A stretch of 53,737 bases of DNA from Pseudomonadota bacterium (lineage in GTDB: Bacteria > Pseudomonadota > Alphaproteobacteria > Rhizobiales > Segnochrobactraceae). Shown here piece by piece: positions 3,395 through 17,727 of this stretch. A program made the position numbers and the translations under genes. The notes beneath the pieces are model-generated. The model did no database searches. It saw only the letters and a program-made list of their open reading frames with translations, and was not told the origin of the DNA. The stretch's first letter is position 1, and each line of letters opens with the position of its first letter. The DNA is taken from assembly GCA_023442215.1 (NCBI GenBank), contig JAEZMP010000216.1, forward strand, positions 1 through 53,737. The letters are read 5' to 3'.

Positions 3395-4569
3395 GCTCCT
3401 GCGAGCTCCCTGACCTGAAGGGCGACGTCCTCGGCGGAGATCTCGCCCTTCAAGCGGCGCACGTGCAGTGCGTAAATCTCTCGGAGGATGGCGGTGTCGT
3501 CGTCGGGCGGGGTTCCGTCGAGCTTGCCCGTGAAGGCTTCGTGCAGCCCTTTGAGGCTGGCCGACTTCACCGCGCGAGCAAGCGCTTGGTGGTAGGCAGT
3601 GAACTGTGCGGAGGACAGGCCGGGCTGGGGCTGGGGGGCGGATGCACCCGGCCTGTCCTCCTGCTCGCCGGGCGACTCCGGCGAGGTCGCGGTGGGGGTG
3701 TCGAGCACCTGCTCTTCACCCACCTGTTCTTCATCCTGCTGCTCGCCGGCGGTCTCGCGTTCGACGTGCTCAAGCGAAAAGCCGGGCTTCGGCGTGCCCG
3801 CTTTCAGACGGGACGCGAGCGTCGGGCGCTCCGGCGTCACGTCGCGGATATCGCGATAGTCGGCCTCGTCCTCGATGCGCAGCGCGTCGGCGAGCTCGGG
3901 GGACGCGGGCATGCGCTTCATGAGCCGGCGGATGACGGTCTTCTTCGCCATCTCGCCCTCGTCGGTGCCCCAGGGCGTGGACTTGATCTTGCCGTCCTTG
4001 AATGCCTTCCAGCCGTCGGACCGGTCACGGATGCGGTGAACCTCCCGGAGGGACATCACCTCGAAGTCGGTCTCTCCGCCGGCCAGCTTCACCACGGCGT
4101 AGTAGGCGTAAGCCTCGCCGCGGTCCTGCGCGAGGTTCGGTTTATGATGCAGGCGCTTGTTGTCGCCCAGCACGCACTCGAACTCGTCGCGCTCGCACAC
4201 CTCGTGGGCATAGGAAGCGGCAATTTCGCCGGACTGGCGGCCGAGCTTGATCAGGCCGCGGTAGCCCACGCGGAGCTGCGGGGCGAGGCGGCGCTCCTGG
4301 TTATTCCAACCGGTGATGAGGTAGGCCTCGCCGAGCTGGGGATCCAGGAGCAGGCCCAGCGCCGCGGCTTTCGACACCTCATTGAACACGGCCTCGGGGT
4401 CGCACTTCAGCAGGTTCGGGTGCTGGCGCAGGGCGATGGCGAGGTTGCGCTCGAACCGCTCTGGCTTCACGTGGGTGGGCAGGGAGGCGAACAGTCCGCT
4501 CGCCCGCTCGGGCGGCAGCACCTGGGCCCTGAAGGCCTCGAATGGGCCCGTGGTGGCGACCTGGTTCAC
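3391..4569 (-). CDS. recT: RecT-family single-strand annealing protein
   Basis: LGEAYL, GYRGLIKL, EMAKKTVIRR motifs. Confidence 0.92.
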   Translation of the reverse strand: MNQVATTGPFEAFRAQVLPPERASGLFASLPTHVKPERFERNLAIALRQHPNLLKCDPEAVFNEVSKAAALGLLLDPQLGEAYLITGWNNQERRLAPQLRVGYRGLIKLGRQSGEIAASYAHEVCERDEFECVLGDNKRLHHKPNLAQDRGEAYAYYAVVKLAGGETDFEVMSLREVHRIRDRSDGWKAFKDGKIKSTPWGTDEGEMAKKTVIRRLMKRMPASPELADALRIEDEADYRDIRDVTPERPTLASRLKAGTPKPGFSLEHVERETAGEQQDEEQVGEEQVLDTPTATSPESPGEQEDRPGASAPQPQPGLSSAQFTAYHQALARAVKSASLKGLHEAFTGKLDGTPPDDDTAILREIYALHVRRLKGEISAEDVALQVRELAGA

Positions 4570-5492
4570 GCCGCGTCCTCCTGCGGGAGGAGGCCCACGT
4601 CGGTCTCGGCATCAAGGCGCTTGCGCAGCCATTCGGGAATGAACAGCTTGGCCTCGCCCTCGAAGGCCGGCCACTCGCCGCTCTCCATGCAGCGCGCGAA
4701 GGTATCGATGGCGCGCCGCACCCGCCGGCGCGCGTAGCCGATCCAGCTTGCGTCCACCTCCACGATGCTCACCGCGTAGGGCGGCACCTTCTCGACGCAC
4801 ACCAGCACGAAGGCGGTCATGTCGATGTTGCACACGGCCTTCAGACCCATGCCAGTCAGGGCGCCGGCCATGTCATAGCCGCGTTCAAGGATCGCGCGCT
4901 CCATGGCACGCGGCGCGGCGTCGGCGGCCGTCTTGAGATCCACCACCACCCCGTCGCTCACGGGAAGGACGTCGGGCCGAATCTTCAGCCAGATGCCGGT
5001 GACGGGGTCGCGGTAGATGATGGAGCGCTCGACCTCGCCCTGAAGGAGGCCCTGGCGCACGAGCGGGTGGCGCGCCAGCGAGGCGGCGATCCCCTTGATG
5101 TGCTGAACCTGGTCGGGCGCCAGGACTGTCTTGCCCGCCTCACGCTGGAAGTCGCGCCATTCGCGGGCAGCCTTGGTGCGATAGTCCGGATACTCGTCCG
5201 GCCGCACGACGAAGCGCTGGCGGAAGCCGGCCTCGCCCAAGAGGAGGGTGTGTGCTGCTTGCCCGAAGTCGAGGGCATCGGACTGCTCCTGCTCGATCCG
5301 CTGCGGGTTCAGATAGCTGGTGGCCCAATAGTGGGCTGGGCTGCGCAGCTCGATCGTGCGCAGGCCAGAGGAGGACACACCGGGGCCGTCGGTGCAGTCG
5401 CCGTGGTAGCGCTCGATATCGAGGGCGTAGACGCCGGGCTCCGTCACGCGCTCGAACGGAAGGAGGGGGTGGATGGGGAAAGCGCTCGTCAT
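4566..5492 (-). CDS. RecE/ExoVIII-like PD-(D/E)XK exonuclease (DUF3799-like)
   Basis: YH..SSSGL, FGQAAH, KIRPD, DLKT motifs; directly upstream of recT. Confidence 0.88.
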   Translation of the reverse strand: MTSAFPIHPLLPFERVTEPGVYALDIERYHGDCTDGPGVSSSGLRTIELRSPAHYWATSYLNPQRIEQEQSDALDFGQAAHTLLLGEAGFRQRFVVRPDEYPDYRTKAAREWRDFQREAGKTVLAPDQVQHIKGIAASLARHPLVRQGLLQGEVERSIIYRDPVTGIWLKIRPDVLPVSDGVVVDLKTAADAAPRAMERAILERGYDMAGALTGMGLKAVCNIDMTAFVLVCVEKVPPYAVSIVEVDASWIGYARRRVRRAIDTFARCMESGEWPAFEGEAKLFIPEWLRKRLDAETDVGLLPQEDAA

Positions 5493-5493
5493 G

Positions 5494-5691
5494 TCACACC
5501 AGCTCCTTCTCGACGGCCAGCCATTCGGGGAGATCGACCACCCAGCCCTGTCCGTCTTCGTCCGCACGGGTGAGTTCGATCTGGGACAGCGGTAGCCACA
5601 CGGTCTTCCCGGTGTTGTGGTCGCGGACCTGGACGGCGCGGTCGCCGCGCACCAACAGGTCCACGTTGATCTCCACGAGGTTGGACTTCAT
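5494..5691 (-). CDS. Hypothetical phage protein
   Basis: 65-aa ORF (WLPLSQI, LPEWLA) with RBS, in the operon. Confidence 0.75.
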   Translation of the reverse strand: MKSNLVEINVDLLVRGDRAVQVRDHNTGKTVWLPLSQIELTRADEDGQGWVVDLPEWLAVEKELV

Positions 5692-7880: not shown

Positions 7881-8299
7881 GCGGCGCTCCTGTCGGCGGC
7901 GAGGGCGGCAAGGCGCGCGTCAACCCGCGCCAGTTCGGCGTTCACGCGCTCGCTGCCGCAGGCCTGGAACAGGCTATCCGGGCAGGTGAGCGGGTTGCTG
8001 ATCCGGGCGCGCCAGTCGAGGAGGTCTTCGATCTCACGCTGCGCCTCGGTAAGCCGGGCGCGACGGTCGCGCTCCACGGCGAGGGATTGGGCCGCCTCGG
8101 CGGTCGCCCGCGCCCAGGCGCCGGCCTGACGGAGCAAGTCCTTGTCGCTCGGGCGACACTCGGGAGAGCGCTTCTGCCAGGAGGCGCGCCAGGCGAGGTA
8201 TTGCTCGTTGGCCAGCGCGGCGACGGCTTCCTGGTCGATCTCCAGGCGTGGGGTGAGGAGGGAGCGCGGGTGCGGGTCCGTCCTCTCGATGGTCGTCAT
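7877..8299 (-). CDS. First gene of PL operon, hypothetical
   Basis: ATG at 8299 preceded by GGGGAG RBS, just downstream of PL. Confidence 0.7.
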   Translation of the reverse strand: MTTIERTDPHPRSLLTPRLEIDQEAVAALANEQYLAWRASWQKRSPECRPSDKDLLRQAGAWARATAEAAQSLAVERDRRARLTEAQREIEDLLDWRARISNPLTCPDSLFQACGSERVNAELARVDARLAALAADRSAA

Positions 8300-8327
8300 G
8301 GCGTCCGCTCCCCTTTCGATGGGGAGA

Positions 8328-8388
8328 TTGCTACACATCGTAGCTACACCTGTCAACTACGATGAGTAGCAATTTCTTCGGATCGTAG
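8328..8388 (-). promoter_or_regulatory. PL/OL: promoter with CTAC-N5-GTAG operators
   Basis: Operators 8331-8343, 8357-8369 and degenerate 8376-8388; -35 TTGACA (8356-8351), 17 bp spacer, TAGCAA; same layout as PR. Confidence 0.85.
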
Positions 8389-8397
8389 CTATGGTGT

Positions 8398-8778
8398 GTT
8401 TGCCCGTCGGGCGAACCGCATCGCGAGGAGCATGCGAAATCGAGTGGCGGCAACGATTCCCTGAGAAGGGTCCCGGCTGAGTAGGCGGGGAATCGTCTGG
8501 CGGATTACCGAGGCGCCGGGTGAAAGAGGGAGTGGGTCACAGTCCACGCCGAACCAAAGCGGCGGACCCCGACGCAGGGCACTGCGGACGAATACGGCGG
8601 CAGGATGCGGCGAAGCGCCCGATAGGGCCGCAGCTCGCATGCGAGACGTGGGGGTGTCCAAAGCCTCCCCTCGGCCAGCATGCAGCGGAACCTGGTTCGT
8701 GCGACGACCGGCCGGCCCTTGATGGCACGCCGGCGGAAGGCCGCAGTGCCGCGCACGCACCGGGAGACGCTGCATGTT
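8398..8778 (+). ncRNA. Candidate large structured non-coding RNA
   Basis: More than ten nested helices, an 11-bp helix 8677-8687/8768-8778, a perfect 10-bp crossing pair 8578-8587/8741-8750, GAGA tetraloop, G-U pairs on + strand; no convincing ORF. Confidence 0.65.
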
Positions 8779-8964
8779 CTAAGCGGCTGGTATGGCTGGG
8801 AAAGTAAATCGTAAATGACAGAATAATAATTGGTGTAAAGAGAGAGTATATCTTGGGAAAATCTAGTGGTTTATCTTATCTGAACGTCCAGGTTGTGAGC
8901 TGCCTGCGCGTGGCAGCGGCGAACATCGGCCTGACAACGAAATCAAGCGCCTCGTGACAGGCTG

Positions 8965-8979
8965 GAACAAAAAGAGAAC
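8965..8979. promoter_or_regulatory. Alphaproteobacterial LexA (SOS) box
   Basis: GAAC-AAAAAGA-GAAC, about 60 bp upstream of the DUF5131 start. Confidence 0.8.
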
Positions 8980-9040
8980 AATTCCCAATTAACCGGACGT
9001 GAGTCGTTGGTTCGCCACAGTGCAGGAGGAGGATGGAGCA

Positions 9041-9790
9041 ATGGCAGAAACGTCGATCGAGTGGACAGATGCGACATGGAACCCTGTGGCGGGCTGTTCC
9101 GTGATGTCTGCCGGCTGCACGAATTGCTATGCTATGCGCATGGCGGCGCGGCTGGAGGCTATGGGCGTCGACAAATATGCGGGTCTCACCAGGAAGAGTG
9201 GGGGGCGCGCGAAGTGGACTGGAAAATTGTTCCTCGACGAGAAGGCGCTATCGATCCCGGCCGGTTGGTCGAGGCCGCGCAATGTATTTGTGAACTCGAT
9301 GTCCGACCTCTTCCACGCTGATGTCCCGCGGCAGTTCATTCACCGCGTTTGGGAAGTCATGGAACGAACACCGCGGCATACTTACCAGATTCTGACGAAG
9401 AGGCCTGATCGTATGGCCGAAGTGTTGGGTGATGGATTTAAGGTGTTACCAAACGTATGGCTCGGAACTAGTGTCGAAGATGGTCGGGTTCTTCATCGAT
9501 TGGATGATCTCCGCCGAGTTCCCGCAGTTGTGAGGTTTGTGTCGTTCGAGCCCTTGATCGGCTCGGTCGTGGCCGGAAATCTTGAAAGGATCCAATGGGC
9601 CATCGTCGGTGGCGAATCTGGCCCAGGCGCTCGACCTATCGAGCAGGTGTGGGTGGATGAGATCTTCGAGATGTGCGCAGACGCTGGGGCAGCATTCTTC
9701 TTCAAACAGTGGGGTGGGTGGAACAAGAAGGCCTCAGGCAGGTCCTATCGTGGCCGGACGTGGGAAGAGATGCCTTCCGCTACAGCTTAA
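9041..9790 (+). CDS. DUF5131 (phage Gp37/Gp68) three-Cys radical-SAM-like protein
   Basis: IEWTDATWNP, GCx6CxxCYA, FVNSMSDLFH, LTKRP, VGGESG, FFFKQWGG. Confidence 0.92.
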   Translation: MAETSIEWTDATWNPVAGCSVMSAGCTNCYAMRMAARLEAMGVDKYAGLTRKSGGRAKWTGKLFLDEKALSIPAGWSRPRNVFVNSMSDLFHADVPRQFIHRVWEVMERTPRHTYQILTKRPDRMAEVLGDGFKVLPNVWLGTSVEDGRVLHRLDDLRRVPAVVRFVSFEPLIGSVVAGNLERIQWAIVGGESGPGARPIEQVWVDEIFEMCADAGAAFFFKQWGGWNKKASGRSYRGRTWEEMPSATA

Positions 9791-10608
9791 AGCAAGGGCA
9801 TCTGCTTGTCCGTGTCGCCGGCGATTCCCCAAAAGCGATGAGCCAGCGCGTGGCTCGCGATCAGAAGTAACCAGTACAGGTGTTGATCTTGCGACCCCTT
9901 GAGTACCTTCATGTGTGGAGAGGCTGAAAATCCAGCTTGAGAGACAATCTGTTTCCAGTGGCCTAGTATTTGTGTCCTAATACGACGTGCGCCTTGATCG
10001 AGTGCAACTGCATCTCTCCATCCCGGAGCAAACGCATCGAGAGCCGATTCTTTTGCGGCGATGTTGCGACCAAGGTTCCTTTGAAAGTCCATCTTGCTTA
10101 GATGGACCAGGACATCCATCCGCTTTCGCCGGGCAAGGGATTGGAGAATTCGAAAATCCAATGCGCCGAGGCTGAATGGGTCGACGAATGCAAAATAGAG
10201 GCTGTGGGGACTCGATCGCTCGATCATTTGCCGCACGGTTTCCACAGCGGGCCCGCGGAATGGCGTAACCGGAGCGCCTGCTCTTTGTAATCGCGCGGTC
10301 GCTGCGGTAAGACGCACTTCGTCAATGTCGCCGATTAAGACCTGAGAGAATGGCGCGCCACTCCTTACGCTTTCACGCCAAGCTGCTACACAACTACCGT
10401 CGACAAATTCCTGGCCTCTAATGGACGCCCGACCAGGACCGCAGAATAGATCGATGTAGATTGCACCACCCTTTCCAGGGCCGATAAATTTCTTCCGTGC
10501 CGCGTGAGAAATGTCGATATAGCGGCACAATTTTTCGTGTTTGTCCCTTACCCACGGGCCGACATCTTCGGCTGGCAATCCATCGTCGCCTTCGACCAGC
10601 TGCCCCAC
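9787..10608 (-). CDS. tcmP: Three-Cys-motif partner protein (SAM methyltransferase fold)
   Basis: W..DKH..L..Y, YIDLFCGPG, FAFVDPF; neighbour of DUF5131; GTG start with GGAG RBS. Confidence 0.85.
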   Translation of the reverse strand: MGQLVEGDDGLPAEDVGPWVRDKHEKLCRYIDISHAARKKFIGPGKGGAIYIDLFCGPGRASIRGQEFVDGSCVAAWRESVRSGAPFSQVLIGDIDEVRLTAATARLQRAGAPVTPFRGPAVETVRQMIERSSPHSLYFAFVDPFSLGALDFRILQSLARRKRMDVLVHLSKMDFQRNLGRNIAAKESALDAFAPGWRDAVALDQGARRIRTQILGHWKQIVSQAGFSASPHMKVLKGSQDQHLYWLLLIASHALAHRFWGIAGDTDKQMPLL

Positions 10609-10737
10609 ATCAGTCTCCGGTTTTGCAATGGGAGCGGTGGGGCTATAACAGTCCCATACACCGCGAGTGACAGAATACTCTCTGGATTCGCCTATAGCGT
10701 GCAAGCGCGCCAAGTTCCTTCCCCACGGGAAATGGGG

Positions 10738-11946
10738 CTATTCCACCGTGCATCGAATCTGGAACGTGTAGCCCCGGCCAGCCGTGGCGATGTCCGTCGG
10801 ATCCAGCTTCGCAGTAGCCTCGCTCTCGCTCGGGTCGATGCCGTTCGCCCGGAGAAAGCTGGCAGCGATGTCCGAGCGGATCGCATAGTTCACATTCTGG
10901 GGTAGGGCGCCGCTCGCCTCCAGAGTGGCCACGTCGTCCAGCCGCGCGCGGGTCACGCCCACCAACTGGCCGGACGTGTTCACCACCGGCCCGCCGGAGT
11001 TGCCCGGCTGGATGGGTGCTGAAAGTTGGAAGTGCCGCGTGTCACCGCCGAGGCCGGAGAGAGAGGACACCTGGCCGCCGGTGAAGTTCAGGCCATTGTC
11101 GATGATGCCGGGCAGGGGGAAGCCGAGGGCATAGACGAACTCGCCAAGCTTGAGCGAGCGTCGTGCGAACTGTACGGACTCGGTCCTCTTCGGCTCGGTG
11201 AGTTGGACCAGAGCGAGGTCGTTTGTCTTGTCGCGTGCCGTGATGCGGGCTCGCCCATAGCCTTCGATAGTCGCTGACGTGCAGCCCTCCACTACATGTG
11301 CATTGGTTAGGCCGGTCCCCTCATTCTGAACGAACGTCCCTGACCCGAATGCGGCCCCTTTTGAGGGCTTGGGGGCCGGGGTTGTTTTTGCGGAGGATTG
11401 AGGCCCTACCGGTGCACTTGAAGGCGGAGCGGATCGCTGCGAGCCTTGTTGATCGGCTTTCGCGTTGTTCCCGGCGCAGACCAGTAGGTCTGTCAACATC
11501 CGCGCTGTGCCGGTCAAATTGAAAGACGTTTCAAAGCCCGATGTGGAAACGTTGAGGCGATATCCAGATCTAAAGTTATTGAAGAGGTCACTACTATCTG
11601 GAAGACCGATTCGGATCATATTATCTATCGGAGAATAGCCTTGATATATAAAGTTCTTTGAACCATCTATATTCATATAAACCGAAACCCTATCTCCCTT
11701 TCGATAGCGGACCCGGCTGCCAGAAAAACTAATTGCCCAGTCGAAATTCTTTGAAACGGAAAAAAATACATTTGTCCCGCTTTTATACTCCCCCATAGAC
11801 ACGCAGCTCACAAACGCGCCATCCGTGTCACTGACATTTTTTGAAATTTCCCATTCCCCACTGTAGCCAAGAACGATATTCTTCGCCTCGGCATAATTTG
11901 AAAAGAATAAAAGTAGGGCCGGAAATGCCAATTGGCTGAAATGCAT
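10738..11946 (-). CDS. Exported trypsin-like (S1C) serine protease with N-terminal domain
   Basis: Signal peptide; TNAHV, DLAL, GNSGGP catalytic triad motifs; no PDZ domain. Confidence 0.9.
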   Translation of the reverse strand: MHFSQLAFPALLLFFSNYAEAKNIVLGYSGEWEISKNVSDTDGAFVSCVSMGEYKSGTNVFFSVSKNFDWAISFSGSRVRYRKGDRVSVYMNIDGSKNFIYQGYSPIDNMIRIGLPDSSDLFNNFRSGYRLNVSTSGFETSFNLTGTARMLTDLLVCAGNNAKADQQGSQRSAPPSSAPVGPQSSAKTTPAPKPSKGAAFGSGTFVQNEGTGLTNAHVVEGCTSATIEGYGRARITARDKTNDLALVQLTEPKRTESVQFARRSLKLGEFVYALGFPLPGIIDNGLNFTGGQVSSLSGLGGDTRHFQLSAPIQPGNSGGPVVNTSGQLVGVTRARLDDVATLEASGALPQNVNYAIRSDIAASFLRANGIDPSESEATAKLDPTDIATAGRGYTFQIRCTVE

Positions 11947-12725
11947 TAGAGCCTCGATATCCTGCAGATCACCCGACCAATGATCCTAACTTGTTCGAGC
12001 GCAAGCTGCCTGTTTGAATGCATCGGGTTGTCCGAAATGACCTCGACCATGACGGGGTCTTCGGTCCCCTGCACATATTGGAGTCGCTTTACCTGGACCC
12101 CCGTCGGACCTGTGATGGCGTAGAGGCCATCCTGCGACAGGGTGTTCTGTCGCCGGTTGATGAGCACGCGGTCGCCGGCTGTAAGCGTTGGAATCATTGA
12201 ATCGCCCTCGACGGGAAAAATCTCCACGTCGATCTCGCGGGCACGCAGTTCGCTGTGGAGGAAATCCTGCGGCACCCGCCATGTGGCCCGCAGGTTATCC
12301 ACCACCTGGCCGTCGATGACGATCTCGGGGGCAAATCCGCCCGGACCGTGGCCGCCGATGACATCCACCTCGACCAACTCGCCGGGTTCAAGCTGGCGCC
12401 GCGCCTTCTTGCGGGCGGCCTTCGCCTGATCGGGATCCGGAGGGAAGTCAGGCTCCACGTGATAGTCGCCGTTGGCGATCTGCTCGCTTGCGACGTGTTC
12501 TGATCGAGATGCTTCGCCGTGGTACAACCAAAGCATGTCGCCGCCGAACCACCGCGCGTACTTCCGCGCGGTGTCCTCGTCGAAATCTCGGCCACCGGCG
12601 TGCCCAGCCCGCTCATGCGCATTGTAGCTGGAGACCTTCGCTCCAAACTGGAGCGCAGCCTCGCGGGAGGACTTGAAGCCCGCACGCACCCTCAAAAATT
12701 TCAGTCTGTCGCCGCGTGTTTTCAT
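11946..12725 (-). CDS. cI: CI-like repressor (HTH + S24 peptidase)
   Basis: N-terminal HTH, GDSM and VKRL autocleavage motifs; divergent from cro. Confidence 0.92.
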   Translation of the reverse strand: MKTRGDRLKFLRVRAGFKSSREAALQFGAKVSSYNAHERAGHAGGRDFDEDTARKYARWFGGDMLWLYHGEASRSEHVASEQIANGDYHVEPDFPPDPDQAKAARKKARRQLEPGELVEVDVIGGHGPGGFAPEIVIDGQVVDNLRATWRVPQDFLHSELRAREIDVEIFPVEGDSMIPTLTAGDRVLINRRQNTLSQDGLYAITGPTGVQVKRLQYVQGTEDPVMVEVISDNPMHSNRQLALEQVRIIGRVICRISRL

Positions 12726-12732
12726 CTGCCGC

Positions 12733-12792
12733 ATGGTAGCGACGAAGTTGCTACGCGGGGTAGTTGACGGAAAAATCTACGTAGTGTAGCAA
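12733..12792. promoter_or_regulatory. PR/OR and PRM region
   Basis: Operators CTAC-N5-GTAG at 12751-12763 and 12777-12789; TTGACG-17-TAGCAA rightward; TACCAT (-10 like) leftward at 12738-12733. Confidence 0.85.
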
Positions 12793-12799
12793 CGTAGCT

Positions 12800-13036
12800 A
12801 TGATTGACGCGGCATACATCATCGGGTTGTGGCCCTCCGTTAAGGCCTTCGCCGAAGATCACGGCATTAAGGCCACTCATGTCCATGTCATGAAGGCGCG
12901 GCGTTCGATCCCGCCGCCGAGGTGGCCGACCACGCTTGCTGCCGCCAAGAGGCGCGGCATCGATCTCACCCTCGAAATGCTCGTTGAAGCCCATGGGGGA
13001 GAGTCCTCGGAGACCCCCGCCGCCGAGGTGGCGTGA
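12800..13036 (+). CDS. cro: Cro-like repressor
   Basis: 78-aa HTH-like protein (II.LWPS..AFA.D.G...W/R.SIP..W) divergent from cI. Confidence 0.85.
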   Translation: MIDAAYIIGLWPSVKAFAEDHGIKATHVHVMKARRSIPPPRWPTTLAAAKRRGIDLTLEMLVEAHGGESSETPAAEVA

Positions 13037-13455
13037 TGCTCGCCATCCGCATCGAGCTTTGGCCCGGCGGCGACAAGAGCCAGGCCCGGACCATCGCGGA
13101 AGCGACGGTCACCAACATCTCGGGCCTCGACGACGTCTCCGATTATCAGGTCGCCGCCTTGGAGACAGCCAGCGAAGTGACCGGGCTCCCGGCAAGGGCC
13201 GGCGGCTTCGTCATTCCCGGCCATCCGCGCAAATCCACAGTCTGGTTGCTGGTCGCCAAGGTCGCCATGGCGGCCGCCCGGCGCTTCACGCCTGATCCTG
13301 TTTCTGTGTCCCGCGACCCCGGCGCCCGCCTGCCAGCACCGCGCCGTGTCGCTCCCGTCCACACTGATCCGTCTCCTGTGTCCATCTCCGTGCTGGAGCC
13401 ATCCAAGCACGGAGAAATTGGGAGATGTCCCAAAAGTCTTGGGAGCAGCACATGA
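13036..13455 (+). CDS. Hypothetical phage protein
   Basis: TGATG coupling with cro; N-terminal ~85 aa look globular (IELWPGGD). Confidence 0.65.
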   Translation: MLAIRIELWPGGDKSQARTIAEATVTNISGLDDVSDYQVAALETASEVTGLPARAGGFVIPGHPRKSTVWLLVAKVAMAAARRFTPDPVSVSRDPGARLPAPRRVAPVHTDPSPVSISVLEPSKHGEIGRCPKSLGSST

Positions 13456-13838
13456 GTGCCCTCGCCGAGGAAATGCAGGACGGCCTCCGCGCCGTCGCTG
13501 GCCCAGGTGGCAGCGTGAAGGAACGCATTTCCCGAGCGGCGCGCCGCACCGGCCTCGCCTACTGGCGGGTCTTTGACCTTTGGTACGGCAAGGCGCGCCG
13601 CATCGACCCCCACGAAATCGAGACCGTCCGGTCGAAGCAAGAGCAAGAGGAGGCCCTGCGTGCCGACACTGACGAGCTACTCGCCCAGGTTCTTGCGCGC
13701 GTGGCTGCTCTTGAGGCGGCTCTTGCCGATCAGCGCGCGGGCGCGGCTGCGGGATCGGGCGCTGCGGCAGTCGGACCGGGCGGCTTGGTGGATCGCGTTC
13801 TGGGGCGGCCTTCGGGACCGCTGATTGGCGGGCGCTGA
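13425..13838 (+). CDS. CII-like HTH regulator
   Basis: SVKERISRAARRTGL..RVFDLWYGKARRI; position after cro. Confidence 0.65.
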   Translation: MSQKSWEQHMSALAEEMQDGLRAVAGPGGSVKERISRAARRTGLAYWRVFDLWYGKARRIDPHEIETVRSKQEQEEALRADTDELLAQVLARVAALEAALADQRAGAAAGSGAAAVGPGGLVDRVLGRPSGPLIGGR

Positions 13839-14032
13839 TGCTGACCGGCGACGAACTCCGGCGGATGCACACCGCCCTCGGCACGGTGCTGAAGACCTGC
13901 ATCCGGGATCGCCGCGCGCTCGCCCGCAAGGATGCGGAGCACCTGCTTCCCGACCTGGAGAAGCTCCACCAGCACCTCGGCGACGCCGCGAACAAGAGGG
14001 GAAAGAGCCATGGCGCCGCAGAGGCCGGTTGA
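13838..14032 (+). CDS. Hypothetical phage protein
   Basis: 64-aa ORF with TGATG coupling. Confidence 0.65.
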   Translation: MLTGDELRRMHTALGTVLKTCIRDRRALARKDAEHLLPDLEKLHQHLGDAANKRGKSHGAAEAG

Positions 14033-14258
14033 GGGCCAAGACGTCCAGAAGGTCGCGAGCCGGTTCGATCCCCAGCCCGGCCTCGCCACGCCCGAGGACT
14101 TCCGGCGCGCGGCGCATGCCGACCAATACGAGCTGCTGCGCACGGATGTCTTCGACATCGCGGAGCGGGAGCGCATCGAGCGGCGCATCGCTCGCTTCAA
14201 CTCGATGGCCCGCCGCCTGGAGTGGATGGCAGCCCGGCCGGGGAGGGCGGTGGCATGA
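14010..14258 (+). CDS. Hypothetical phage protein
   Basis: GAGGGG RBS, ATGA overlap with the next gene. Confidence 0.6.
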   Translation: MAPQRPVEGQDVQKVASRFDPQPGLATPEDFRRAAHADQYELLRTDVFDIAERERIERRIARFNSMARRLEWMAARPGRAVA

Positions 14259-14872
14259 GCGCTGCCATCGAGAAGAAGGCTCACGTGTGGGAGCGCGACC
14301 AGCTCGATTGGTATGTGGAGCCTCCGGCCGCGACCGAGGCGCTGCTCACGGCCGAGCGCTTTTCCGGGCGTGTGTTCGATCCCTGCTGCGGGCAGGGCAA
14401 CATCGTGCGGACGCTGATTGACTGCGGCGTGCAGGCCTATGGCTCGGATATCCGCCAGCGGGTCTGGCCGCAGCCCTCCTGGTTCGTCGCAGAGGCGGAC
14501 TTTCTGGCGGGCGATGCCAATGGGCCTCATCCGAACATCGTGATGAACCCGCCATTCTTCCGCGCAAAGGGCGCCGAAGCCTTCATCCGCCATGCCATCG
14601 GGCAAGCGAGCGCCAAGGTCGCGGCTTTCGTGGATGTGCGCTTCCTCGCCGGTGCTGATCGGGCGAACGGCCTCTTCGCCCAGCACCCGCCGCACCGCAT
14701 CTGGGTCATCACGCCACGGGTCTCGTGCCCGCCCGGTGCCTACCTCGCCGACGGCGGGAAGGCCGGCAACGGCTCGTCCGACTGGTGTTGGCTGGTGTGG
14801 GACCTGACCGCGCCGCCTGCCGCCCGCTCCGAATTCGGCTGGCTCCGCCGGCCCACCACCAAGGCAACGTGA
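14255..14872 (+). CDS. Amino (N6A/N4C) DNA methyltransferase-like protein
   Basis: FDPCCGQG (motif I) and MNPPF (motif IV). Confidence 0.8.
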   Translation: MSAAIEKKAHVWERDQLDWYVEPPAATEALLTAERFSGRVFDPCCGQGNIVRTLIDCGVQAYGSDIRQRVWPQPSWFVAEADFLAGDANGPHPNIVMNPPFFRAKGAEAFIRHAIGQASAKVAAFVDVRFLAGADRANGLFAQHPPHRIWVITPRVSCPPGAYLADGGKAGNGSSDWCWLVWDLTAPPAARSEFGWLRRPTTKAT

Positions 14873-14882
14873 GGAGCACACC

Positions 14883-15530
14883 ATGGCACGTCCTAAAGGG
14901 TCGAAGAACAAGCCGAAGATCGTCCCGGCGAACACGAATGCATCGCCGCCGCCACCGGCGAACCACAACCAGCTCACGGACGAGCAGCAACAGGCTCTCT
15001 TTGAGCAGCACAAGAAGAAGTTCGAGCACTTCCTCGCGCTGAAAAAGAAGGCCGACGCGGACTTCAAGAATGCCTGCAAGCTCGCGAAATCCGAGCTGGG
15101 TGACGGCGCGGTGGACTCCATCAAGGACGCCATCGAGCTGGAGAGCGAGGAAGGCGAGGCTCGCTTCAAGGCGCGGATGGAGCGCCAGATTCGCGTCGCC
15201 CGCTGGCTGGGCCTCGATGTCGGCGTCCAGGGCGAGCTGTTCGGCGCGGACCGCACGCCGGGCGATGACCGCGCCTTCGGCGAGGGCAAGCGTGCCGGCA
15301 TGGCGGGGCAGGAGCGCCGGCCGCCCTATGACGCCGCGACCTCCCAGTCCCGCAAATGGATGGAGGGTTACGACGCCGGGCAGGACGTGAACCGCTCCCT
15401 GATGAAGGACGCCATCAAGCCTCCCAAGGCAAAGGCGGACGCTCCGGCCACCGATCCCTTCGACGATGCGCTGCCCGCCGGCCAGTCCGACAAGGATTGG
15501 GAAGCCGCAGCCCCGGAATCGGTGGCCTGA
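14883..15530 (+). CDS. AT-hook / GapR-like / RMF-like multidomain protein
   Basis: RPKGSKNK start, helical core, RAFGEGKRAGMAG..PPY..WMEGY. Confidence 0.6.
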   Translation: MARPKGSKNKPKIVPANTNASPPPPANHNQLTDEQQQALFEQHKKKFEHFLALKKKADADFKNACKLAKSELGDGAVDSIKDAIELESEEGEARFKARMERQIRVARWLGLDVGVQGELFGADRTPGDDRAFGEGKRAGMAGQERRPPYDAATSQSRKWMEGYDAGQDVNRSLMKDAIKPPKAKADAPATDPFDDALPAGQSDKDWEAAAPESVA

Positions 15531-15531
15531 C

Positions 15532-16155
15532 ATGCGCATCGCCGGCCTTGATATCGCGACCAACACCGGCGTGGGCCTCATCCTCGGCGAGGAGGTCCGC
15601 GCCCTGAGCTTCCGCCCGAAGGAGAAGCGGCCGTTCGGCCTCGGCCCGGGCGAGGTGGACTTCGCCTATGAGGGCCGGCTCGCGCGTGAGTTCCGGGACT
15701 GGCTGCGGCCGCTGCTGGTGGCCGAGGCCATCGAGGCGGTGGGGATCGAGAAGCCGCTCCCCCCGAACGTCACCTATCGCAAGCCCATCGTGGACCGGAA
15801 CACGGAGTGGGCCGGCACCGCGATCCGCTACGAGGAGAAGGGCGGCACCACCATGGCCACCATCTTCCGCATCTACAGCTTCGTGGGGGAGGCGTGCGAG
15901 CTGTGCGCCCGCCTCAACATCCCCGTGCACGTCTTCTCGCAGGACGCATGGCGCAAGAGCTTCCTCGGCTTCTCGAAGGCGCCCAAGGGCACCACGGACG
16001 GCTCCGCGTGGCTCAAGGCCCAGGCGAAGGCCCAGTGCGGCCGGATCGGGGTGGAGGTGAAGAACGCCGACGCCGCCGATGCCGTGGGAGTCGTCTGGCA
16101 CCTGCGCGGCATCGTGGACCCGATGAAGCACGGGCTCTTCGCGGCGGCCGAATGA
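15532..16155 (+). CDS. RuvC-like Holliday junction resolvase
   Basis: IAGLDIATNTG, VGIEKP, NADAADA acidic motifs. Confidence 0.82.
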   Translation: MRIAGLDIATNTGVGLILGEEVRALSFRPKEKRPFGLGPGEVDFAYEGRLAREFRDWLRPLLVAEAIEAVGIEKPLPPNVTYRKPIVDRNTEWAGTAIRYEEKGGTTMATIFRIYSFVGEACELCARLNIPVHVFSQDAWRKSFLGFSKAPKGTTDGSAWLKAQAKAQCGRIGVEVKNADAADAVGVVWHLRGIVDPMKHGLFAAAE

Positions 16156-16162
16156 GCGGGCC

Positions 16163-16525
16163 ATGGCCACAGAGCTGGAGCGGCTGCGAGAGGAGAACGA
16201 GTTCCTCAGGCTGAGGGTGCAGGAGCTGGAAGGTTTGCTCCTGAACGCCGACCTGCCGCCGAGCCTGGGCCTGTCGCGGACGGCGGGCCGAGTGCTCTCG
16301 CTCCTCCTGGCCCGGACCATCGTCACTAAGGAGGCGGTCATGACGGCGCTCCACAGCATCGCGGTGGAGGACCCGCCGGACGACAAGATCGTGGCCGCCT
16401 TCATCTTCAGCCTGCGGCGCAAGCTCGCACCGCATGGCGTGGCCATTCACAGCAAGGTCGGGCGCGGCGCGCCCGGCTACTGGATCACCAACGAGGACAA
16501 GGCAAAGGTGAGGGCGTTGTCATGA
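16163..16525 (+). CDS. Stand-alone OmpR/CtrA-type winged-helix protein
   Basis: VTKE..PDDKIVAAFIFSLRRKL..GRG; no receiver domain. Confidence 0.78.
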   Translation: MATELERLREENEFLRLRVQELEGLLLNADLPPSLGLSRTAGRVLSLLLARTIVTKEAVMTALHSIAVEDPPDDKIVAAFIFSLRRKLAPHGVAIHSKVGRGAPGYWITNEDKAKVRALS

Positions 16526-17727
16526 GGGAAGACGACTCCGACCACATCGCCGGCGAGCTGACGAAGCGGATCGAGCAAATGCTCGACACCTATGCGCCCG
16601 GCTGGATCGAGCACCGCGGCAAGGCCTACCTGACGTCAAAGGGCCCGAAGAATCTGGGCAGCTTCCAGGTGAACCTCCAGGGCCAGCACCGGGGACAGTT
16701 CTACCGCTTCTCCCAGCAGATCGGCGGCGGCCCGGTGAAGCTGCTCGCCTACCTCCTGAACGGCACGGTGGGCGAGCCCGGCCGGGAGGACTTCCGCCGC
16801 GCCTTCGAGGAGGCGCGTGCCTTTCTCGGGATCCGGGGGCAGGTGGACCACGAGGCCGCCGCCCGCGCGCGCCGGGAGAGCGAGGAGCGTCGGGCGGCTG
16901 CAGTGCGCAAGGAAGAACAGCGCCGCGCCCGCCGCGCCGACACCGCCGGGGAGATTTGGGGCGAGTGCGTGCCGATCGCCGGCACTCTGGCGGAGCGCTA
17001 CCTGCACGGCCGCGGCATCCCCACGCCGCCCATGGGCTGGCCGGATGTGCTCGGCTTCCATGCGGGCCTCGAGTACGAGCTCGAAGCGGAGTGGCAGGAC
17101 GGTCGCAAGGTGCGCGATGGCCGCGTGTTCCCTTGCCTCGTCGCCCGGGTGCAGGACATGGCCGGCGACACCATCGCGGTGTGGCGCATCTTCCTGAACC
17201 CCGAGACCGCCGGGAAGGCGCCGGTCAAGAGCCCGAAGGTGGGCTTCGGCCCGGCCCGCGGCGGTGCGGTGCGCATTGGGGGGCTCGCCGAGATGATCGG
17301 GGGCGGGGAGGGGCTAGAGACCGCCTTGGCCGCCTGGAGCCTTGAGAGCTATCGGCACCCCGTCTGGGCGATGCTCTCAACCTCCGGGATGATGACCTTC
17401 GAGCCGCCGATTGAGGTGCAGCGCCTGCGGCTTTATCCCGACGGTGACCTGCCGCGTCGGCTGGATGACGGCTCCATAGGTACGGCGCCTGGAATTGCGG
17501 CGGCGTGGAAGCTGCGGGATCGGCTCGCGCCGGCCGGCATCCCGACGGTGATCAACCAGCCGCCGTTCAACAGCGACTTCCTGGACGTGTGGAACGCGGT
17601 GCGGGGGGAGCGTGAACCTCGTGCTGTCCCTTTTCCCTGGAATTGGCCTCCTCGACATGGCTTTCGAGGAGGCCGGCTTCTGCGTCGTCCGTGGACCCGA
17701 TCTGCTGTGGGGAGGCGATATCCATAG
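16522..17727 (+). CDS. Toprim-type primase
   Basis: AERYLHGRGI, GEGLETALA, YPDGD, DFLD. Confidence 0.85.
   Translation: MREDDSDHIAGELTKRIEQMLDTYAPGWIEHRGKAYLTSKGPKNLGSFQVNLQGQHRGQFYRFSQQIGGGPVKLLAYLLNGTVGEPGREDFRRAFEEARAFLGIRGQVDHEAAARARRESEERRAAAVRKEEQRRARRADTAGEIWGECVPIAGTLAERYLHGRGIPTPPMGWPDVLGFHAGLEYELEAEWQDGRKVRDGRVFPCLVARVQDMAGDTIAVWRIFLNPETAGKAPVKSPKVGFGPARGGAVRIGGLAEMIGGGEGLETALAAWSLESYRHPVWAMLSTSGMMTFEPPIEVQRLRLYPDGDLPRRLDDGSIGTAPGIAAAWKLRDRLAPAGIPTVINQPPFNSDFLDVWNAVRGEREPRAVPFPWNWPPRHGFRGGRLLRRPWTRSAVGRRYP

Follow-up and report, generated by a model that had tools for sequence, protein, structure and literature searches.

A new structured RNA family at the left operators of Xanthobacter-type prophages

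The DNA stretch analyzed here (the window; 53,737 nucleotides (nt) of contig JAEZMP010000216.1, assembly GCA_023442215.1, filed under the Segnochrobactraceae) is a prophage adjoining a tRNA gene at 50-123, and the subject of this work is a structured RNA element at 8398-8778 on its forward (+) strand. To the left of the element, the leftward early operon, to which a DUF3799/PD-(D/E)XK nuclease gene at 4566-5567 belongs, has its upstream end at its first ATG, 8299; the interval from 8300 to the start of the DUF5131 gene at 9041 is without a credible gene. To the right follows a cargo island with the DUF5131 gene (9041-9790, + strand, about 260 nt downstream of the element), a gene for a TcmP partner protein (9787-10713, - strand; it scores 145.7 bits with the TIGR04474 model, whose cut-off is 53), and a gene for a trypsin-like protease of 402 amino acids (aa) (10738-11946, - strand). 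Next to the island are an S24-type repressor gene (11946-12734, - strand) and then a cro-like frame. The G+C content drops from about 70% to 40-60% across ~8800-11946. The element is the fixed edge of this variable cargo island, lying beside the left operators and divergent from the putative leftward promoter PL. It is probably a stand-alone gene for a structured non-coding RNA (ncRNA) of an undescribed family, found in a small set of lambda-like temperate phages whose hosts are Xanthobacter-type alphaproteobacteria.

Eight other loci (designated by L numbers) turned out to carry the element; seven have distinct sequences, as L017 and L028 appeared to be the same. The RNA-bearing loci are Xanthobacter-type prophages and form two clades whose cores share about 65% identity. 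A 140-aa neighboring protein led to three IMG/VR contigs with the element, exact DNA patterns led to two further viral contigs and to the genomes of Xanthobacter flavus and X. tagetidis, and in a genome BLAST centered on X. flavus, 3 of 32 genomes of the genus and 4 of 401 sampled genomes of the family had the element. Two of these four BLAST-positive family genomes belong to the divergent clade B, namely L029 and L030, the latter having the same DNA as L031. Compared with the window, the core (8453-8672) is 97.7-99.5% identical in L015, L016, L017, L021, and L028 and 94.5% identical in L020; the flanking genes in L015, L016, and L017 are 90.9-94.4% identical. The close clade (clade A) spans three operator types and its core is still 94.5-99.5% identical, i.e., the element is independent of the operator type.

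The element is present in a single copy in its own genome, and its BLAST against INPHARED phages and PLSDB plasmids returned no match. The window's family (11 genomes) and the order sample (401 genomes) gave merely GC-rich matches of 22-50 nt, which were judged to be chance, since alignments of five loci showed nothing else alike. Two exact patterns had 0 matches each among metagenome contigs. A junction-motif pattern for further clades returned just five loci that were already known, and a covariance model of the 3′ domain, applied to 151 genomes of the order, gave a sole family match (G401) and no further clade. Two genomes with 28-bit matches to the covariance model (G902 and G850) were dropped, being without the other family motifs and resembling coding DNA, as was L025, an IMG/VR sequence with an 18-mer match that has just a 19-nt stretch in common with the element. 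The phages of genomes G530, G496, and G633 share the exonuclease (the nuclease gene); the element is absent from the 12 kb fetched for each, and no common gene stands in its place. Judging from this sampling, the RNA family is genuine yet narrow in range.

The left operon of the window shares about 94% identity with an X. flavus prophage. X. flavus is apparently filed under a different and much larger family than the window's genome, and the source assembly comprises 705 contigs with 3.9% contamination. The identity to the X. flavus prophage, taken with the lack of an element copy in the sample of the window's own family and order, suggests that either the contig is mis-binned or the host range of the phage is wide.

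As a single sequence, 8398-8778 has a modest folding signal. Against shuffles the + strand is favored, with a z-score of -1.78 (4 of 100 shuffles as good) vs. +0.08 for the - strand; the 3′ domain (8672-8780) reaches -3.20, with none of 200 shuffles as good. The initial annotation, made from the letters of the stretch, had described a hairpin CCCU-GAGA-AGGG and three stacked 3′ helices (8677-8687/8768-8778, 8691-8696/8759-8764, and 8698-8703/8752-8757), and all of these appear in the minimum free energy (MFE) fold of 8398-8778. The 9-nt arms that it had placed at 8453-8461/8488-8496 are found there.

The fold is kept in evolution. RNAalifold, applied to nine sequences from the two clades, predicted 102 pairs, 22 of which are changed on both sides. 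For the 25 pairs of the 3′ domain, 98% of 200 cells are paired and 9 of 25 pairs are changed on both sides, which none of 500 shuffles reaches; slid controls, in which the partner was moved by 1-3 columns, gave 34-44% paired cells and at most one double-changed pair. For the 36 pairs of the 5′ and middle helices, 95.7% of cells are paired and 6 of 36 pairs are changed on both sides, a result reached by 5 of 500 shuffles; this support stems from the helices M1/M2 (8534-8569) and M3 (8603-8635). Helix S1 of the 3′ domain has a wholly different sequence in clade A (CAUGCAGCG/CGCUGCAUG) and clade B (UGGCAGGAA/UUCCUGCCA), and it forms a 9-bp stem in both; it was left out of the pair count because MAFFT places the stems of the two clades out of register. 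Where only one side of a pair has changed, G-C has become G-U on the + strand, and there are many conserved G-U pairs, which fixes the + strand as the functional strand. In the 200 cells of the 3′ domain, many G-U or U-G pairs stand against three A.C mismatches. The proposed preference of G-U pairs for the + strand was thus borne out, as was the general picture of a multi-domain, non-coding + strand RNA beside the left operators, with helices kept by compensatory changes.

From 5′ to 3′, all parts being on the + strand, the element begins with a variable leader (8402-8452) that differs between homologues and has two compensated pairs within the close clade. The leader holds two hairpins first drawn at 8398-8416 and 8417-8436; both appear in the MFE fold, but their sequence and length vary between clades, and the predicted -10 hexamer places the transcription start near 8402, within the first of them. 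The 5′ junction (8453-8519) has an outer helix 8453-8458/8491-8496 and three hairpins that show no double change: H1 (8459-8462/8467-8470; 94% paired), H2 (8471-8474/8488-8491 plus 8476-8478/8484-8486; 92% paired), and H3 (8497-8502/8514-8519; 89% paired, weak in clade B). In the alignments, the conserved and mostly unpaired stretch UACCGAGGCGCNGGNUGAAANAGGGA (8505-8531) is the same in both clades; used as a pattern in IMG/VR, it matches six loci of the family only. The stacked hairpin M1/M2 (8534-8538/8565-8569 and 8547-8551/8560-8564) has 100% of its cells paired, and both sides have changed in 3 of its 10 pairs. In hairpin M3 (8603-8611/8627-8635), whose 15-nt loop is conserved, 98.8% of cells are paired and 3 of 9 pairs show a double change.

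The linker that follows (8636-8676) is clade-specific, with a 13-nt gap and a different sequence in clade B. Two features proposed around it do not belong to the common fold. The palindrome CUCGCAUGCGAG (8634-8645, including GCAUGC at 8637-8642) lies in a part that differs between clades and occurs in clade A only, and the closing helix GAGGG/CCCUC (8526-8530/8668-8672), whose 3′ strand falls in the linker, has three of its five pairs broken in both clade-B sequences. A self-complementary GGCGCC in or near a loop (8512-8517) is kept in both clades (GGCGCU in L031). Judged by their sequence and place, such palindromes in or near loops could pair between two molecules. The 3′ domain (8677-8778) is a three-way junction carrying S4 and S5 above S1-S3: S1 (8679-8687/8768-8776, extendable to 8677/8778), S2 (8691-8696/8759-8764), S3 (8698-8703/8752-8757), S4 (8705-8706/8734-8735, 8708-8712/8729-8733, and 8714-8717/8724-8727), and S5 (8739-8740/8749-8750). 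A tail conserved in the close clade, UGGUAUGGCUGGGAGG (8786-8803), may pair with 8670-8677. The similarity to other phages stops just beyond it, at ~8801-8854.

A long-range pseudoknot between the two domains had been put forward on the strength of a perfect 10-nt complement. The complement is there in the window, formed by GGCACUGCGG (8578-8587), which lies within the conserved strand GACGCAGGGYRCKGCGGACSAAU, and CCGCAGUGCC (8741-8750), which overlaps the loop and the 3′ strand of S5; the pseudoknot itself is a candidate. Of 2000 dinucleotide shuffles, 264 (13%) contain a perfect inverted repeat of 10 nt, so the complement weighs little alone. Across the nine sequences, 85.6% of the pseudoknot cells are paired, which 332 of 500 shuffles also reach, and both clades keep just the half GGC(A/G)C / G(U/C)GCC. 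The variable pair of this half is A-U in the window, G-C in L021, L029, and L031, and A.C in the other five sequences, a pattern no more than suggestive of the pseudoknot. If formed, the pseudoknot would compete with S5, a small hairpin.

The element is non-coding. Over 8410-8800 the G+C content by codon position is 0.57-0.80, a weak periodicity at best, compared with 0.80-0.88 for the highest and about 0.4-0.65 for the lowest position in neighboring genes. Codon-like conservation was not seen in any of the three frames: in the close homologues the variable columns are evenly distributed over the codon positions, as 13/13/19, 15/19/14, and 10/14/9, and non-synonymous changes outnumber synonymous ones by 46 to 13, 54 to 22, and 37 to 12. 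A decayed or unrecognized protein gene is barely credible as an explanation, even though the homologues keep long open frames (in the window, 8389-8775 on the - strand and 8520-8807 on the + strand). The open frames over the element match no Pfam or PHROG entry, there is no codon-position bias, the non-synonymous changes prevail about threefold in each frame, indels between the clades would break a frame, and the changes occur in compensating pairs. A 29-codon frame from the ATG at 8392 was rejected, as the frame is lost in L016 and L017 through a 1-nt indel.

The element matches no known RNA family. A scan of the whole window with Rfam 15 at the gathering score found the tRNA at 50-123 only. 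When the threshold was relaxed to E values of up to 10, the region 8200-9100 gave two chance matches, both outside 8398-8800, and the clade-B region L029 1380-1900 gave one 12.6-bit match on the opposite strand. ARAGORN reported 0 tRNA or tmRNA genes in 8000-9200, permuted tmRNA included. The initial annotation did not recognize the element as a tmRNA, RNase P, SRP, or 6S RNA or an intron, and these scans agree; the Rfam models that it fails to match also cover riboswitches, self-cleaving ribozymes, and group I/II introns. A likeness to a permuted 5S rRNA was dropped: the comparison with X. flavus 5S rRNA gave just pieces of 9-14 nt with E values of at least 1.8, and GAGUAGG sits in a hairpin loop here, unlike in 5S rRNA. 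Hammerhead and HDV-like topologies do not fit, as compared by eye with their consensus features. Going by titles and the beginnings of abstracts, the literature searched holds no description of such an RNA.

The designation of the site as left operators in an immunity region proved to be correct. The motif CTAC-N5-GTAG occurs at 8331 and 8357 and, with one mismatch, at 8376; two more copies, at 12751 and 12777, lie in the gap between the repressor gene and the cro-like gene; the window contains 13 matches vs. 4.9 expected, a number that none of 100 shuffles reaches. According to the pattern search, operator O1 (8331-8343) lies inside the spacer of PL, which reads leftward from 8356 to 8328 (- strand; -35 TTGACA, the reverse complement of 8351-8356, a 17-nt spacer, and -10 TAGCAA, the reverse complement of 8328-8333). 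PL would drive the leftward early operon; it is read from the sequence, and in the window it stays below the threshold of the promoter scan tool. Operator O2 (8357-8369) ends in three bases that are the first three of the -35 hexamer of a predicted rightward promoter of the RNA (8367-8395, + strand), which consists of TAGCAA (8367-8372), 17 nt, and TATGGT (8390-8395), with a start near 8402. The operator-like site O3 (8376-8388) falls inside the spacer of this promoter. Relative to the predicted start, the operator centers in the window are at about -65, -39, and -20. Sites homologous to O2, the center of which is thus about 39 bp upstream of the start, are present in other loci; a third site comparable to O3 was found elsewhere in L021 only, by eye.

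The rightward promoter has counterparts throughout the family. In every locus a -10-like hexamer (TATGGT, TATGTT, CATAGT, TACTGT, or TATCGT) is at a fixed place, with a -35 hexamer 17 nt upstream that overlaps an operator, and in every locus the element adjoins the operators and diverges from the early leftward operon. The scan tool detects the homologous RNA promoter in L029 (GTGACA-17-TATCGT) and L020 (TTGATA-17-CATAGT). Four operator types occur among the loci (CTAC..GTAG, GGGTA..TACCC, CTTGA..TCAAG, and GGTGACA), and the window's repressor has only 42% identity over 59 residues to that of L015-L017. As the -35 hexamer overlaps O2 and the spacer holds O3, the phage repressor would set the level of the RNA directly. 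The weak -35 hexamer in the window, L015-L017, L021, and L031 would favor activation by the repressor. The earlier idea of a lysogen-expressed RNA is plausible in view of this promoter and operator geometry: we put lysogenic expression at slightly better than even and early-lytic expression at slightly below even.

The right control region (12735-12805) mirrors the logic of the left side. It has TTGACG (12764-12769), a 17-nt spacer, and TAGCAA (12787-12792), with a start that about coincides with the ATG (12800) of the cro-like frame, whose mRNA may therefore be leaderless. PL and a candidate leftward repressor promoter likewise use the hexamer TAGCAA, joined to an operator's GTAG half. In L015 (3688-3993), L016 (3727-4026), and L017 (3640-3996), an extra gene of 99-118 aa separates the operators from the counterpart of the first leftward gene of the window; the window itself has no such gene.

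Sequencing data give some hints of a transcript, with contigs of RNA-type libraries falling entirely within the element. Four runs were compared, all as contigs, and a lack of coverage in them carries no information; most of the listed runs hold about one third of the sampled words, which is roughly the share that the conserved core would supply. A 256-nt contig of run X15 covers 8525-8780, and a 257-nt contig of X20, a metatranscriptome with a 92% relative, covers 8522-8779. A 151-nt contig of X17 covers 8606-8756, and in X16, which is probably DNA, a contig at 8455-8668 crosses 8522. That the contigs of two studies end at the same two places weakly suggests a discrete, possibly processed RNA some 258 nt long (8522-8780), which would run from just upstream of GAGGG (8526) to the foot of S1.

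The initial annotation suspected that the RNA works with the adjacent DUF5131/TcmP pair. Both genes are real, but tblastn finds neither of them, nor the protease, in the other loci fetched, every RNA-bearing locus included. The comparison of gene neighbors, made for L015, L016, L017, L020, L029/L032, and L031 (L021 and L028 were left out), revealed that the gene on the far side of the RNA differs from locus to locus and is convergent in all of these; the element is independent of the cargo. In L015-L017 the far side encodes a small membrane protein and a protein of 211-229 aa. In L020 it has an 87-aa frame, HicB-like by eye but with no NCBIfam match; in L031, frames of 344 and 125 aa that by eye look like methyltransferases; and in G561 (L032), a 263-aa frame that by eye looks like an outer-membrane protein, followed by large ATPase-like genes. 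In this last contig (G561:C6, ~10600-16600) the large genes after the 263-aa frame encode 249, 567, 195, and 817 aa, and the 817-aa gene begins like an SMC/AAA-type ATPase; the run may be a defense island. Given the absence of DUF5131/TcmP elsewhere and the convergent next genes, the partnership is unsupported and a leader or riboswitch role is unlikely. In the window, a GC-rich hairpin without a U-run (GCUGCCUGCGCGUGGCAGC, 8899-8917) sits inside the AT-rich spacer downstream of the element.

The explanations other than a stand-alone ncRNA gene can be weighed against these data. That the element serves the DUF5131/TcmP genes downstream as a riboswitch or other cis-regulatory leader is highly improbable: the DUF5131 gene of the window is on the same strand, about 260 nt downstream, but it has a separate promoter-like site (8954-8982, GTGACA-17-AACAAT), no same-strand downstream gene recurs across the loci, and no riboswitch family matches. 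It is very unlikely, too, that the - strand is the functional one, acting as a structured 3′ end, terminator, or insulator of the leftward repressor/cargo operon. This operon does read toward the element and the complement of the 3′ domain folds fairly well (z of -2.36), yet the whole element folds no better than shuffles on that strand, the many conserved G-U pairs would turn into A.C mismatches, and the conserved promoter points rightward. Similarly improbable is a mere DNA-level module boundary, kept alike by homologous recombination that swaps cargo and having no RNA function. It would account for the end of the phage similarity right after the element, for the cargo that varies in every locus beyond, and for a core more alike than the flanking genes; recombination leaves the paired compensatory changes, the G-U strand bias, and the fold retained at about 65% identity in clade B unexplained, and such a boundary and an RNA function are not mutually exclusive.

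Somewhat more weight, while still unlikely, goes to the reading that the element is the structured head of a long rightward early transcript, which would enter the cargo island antisense to the repressor operon, the element acting in cis in antitermination or interference, for which put RNA in HK022 and the convergent promoters of phage 186 are the models. The scan found no terminator-like site after the element in the window, L029, and L020, the RNA promoter and the repressor operon are convergent, and the promoter of L029 and L020 looks strong and lies under an operator. On the other side, the contigs of two studies end at 8779 and 8780, at the foot of S1 (a weak point), the conservation between phages ends at ~8801-8854, the downstream genes vary in every locus, and the conserved part of about 330 nt far exceeds put-type elements. 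A similarly low probability is given to a new ornate phage RNA with an activity of its own. In one variant it would self-assemble, the 10-nt complement 8578-8587/8741-8750 or the palindromic loops pairing between molecules, as in phi29 pRNA, ROOL, and GOLLD; in the other, its 5′ part would direct a precise cleavage near 8522 that frees the 258-nt RNA. If this were true, the RNA would fill, at the left operators, the slot that the repressor gene has at lambda OR, and the left half of the switch would have an RNA rather than a protein as its second output.

Several points weigh against a stand-alone RNA gene under repressor control as well. The compensatory changes rest on few independent events in just two clades, and the near-identity of the core could be partly due to recent recombinational exchange rather than selection. 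The window's own RNA promoter, with its -35 TAGCAA, is below the threshold of the scan tool, and the missing terminator-like site would allow the element to be the 5′ part of a longer transcript. The near-consensus -35 hexamer inside an operator in L029 and L020 would fit plain repression, and so lytic expression, better. The contigs have a depth of 2-3.5, such data do not show the strand, and only X20 is on record as RNA, DNA being possible in such libraries.

Among known systems, the closest in kind are the large ornate phage RNAs GOLLD and ROOL, the other near kind being the immunity antisense RNAs of P1, P4, and P22. According to a recent preprint, GOLLD and ROOL are large, prophage-encoded, multi-helix ncRNAs with pseudoknots, of unknown function and protein partner; they are multimeric, from ~660 to >800 nt long, and often near tRNA islands, and GOLLD rises during phage lysis (bioRxiv 10.1101/2024.12.08.627333). 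The window's RNA is likewise prophage-borne and multi-helix, but it has ~330-400 nt, lies in the operator region of an immunity switch, and is unrelated in sequence.

The absence of an Rfam match argues against homology to GOLLD and ROOL, which are both among the Rfam families. The immunity antisense RNAs P1/P7 c4, P4 CI, and P22 sar are shorter than about 100 nt and pair with the phage's own early transcripts, and this pairing defines immunity specificity. The window's RNA resembles them in that its gene lies in a temperate phage's immunity region and the RNA may be cut out of a longer transcript, but its core does not change with immunity specificity. Outside 8350-8850, its longest perfect complements within the window are of 12 nt, and 25 complements have at least 11 nt, vs. 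a chance number of about 24 that is a rough estimate made with no shuffle control. HK022 put RNAs, of about 70 nt, are short two-hairpin elements acting in cis on the polymerase that reads on into the early genes. They share with the window's RNA the place of a structured phage RNA directly downstream of an early promoter, but here the downstream genes vary and are mostly convergent, and no common downstream operon exists. Finally, lambda PRM at OR is the promoter of the repressor gene. As there, back-to-back divergent promoters in the window share three operators with centers at about -65, -39, and -20, and a weak -35 hexamer overlaps the middle operator; here the product is RNA and not repressor, the operators are the left and not the right ones, the third site is found just in the window and L021, and activation by the repressor is a possibility that the geometry suggests.

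Returning to the stand-alone ncRNA gene, we assume that a sigma-70-type promoter (-35 at 8367-8372, -10 at 8390-8395) would transcribe the RNA, the repressor setting its level via O2 and O3. The primary transcript may be trimmed to about 258 nt (8522-8780), and the folded RNA would bind a partner that is conserved across phages or hosts. Its mode of action would be neither long antisense pairing nor that of a leader of the next gene. Binding of a partner by the folded RNA is proposed because the core is near-invariant across operator types and no complement exceeds 12 nt in the window.

Large bacterial RNAs with intricate folds are rarely discovered, and several of those described earlier proved to be ribozymes, sensors, or self-assembling cages. 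The narrow range of the present one (3 of 32 genus and 4 of 401 family genomes sampled) limits its general reach. The RNA is a genuine new family of structured phage RNA with an unusual, switch-embedded position, and it is open to experiment: it belongs to a defined genetic switch, has a predicted repressor-controlled promoter and a few clean covarying helices, and cultured lysogens, X. flavus and X. tagetidis, are available. If the repressor truly drives the RNA, the left operators of a lambda-type switch can have RNA as their direct output.

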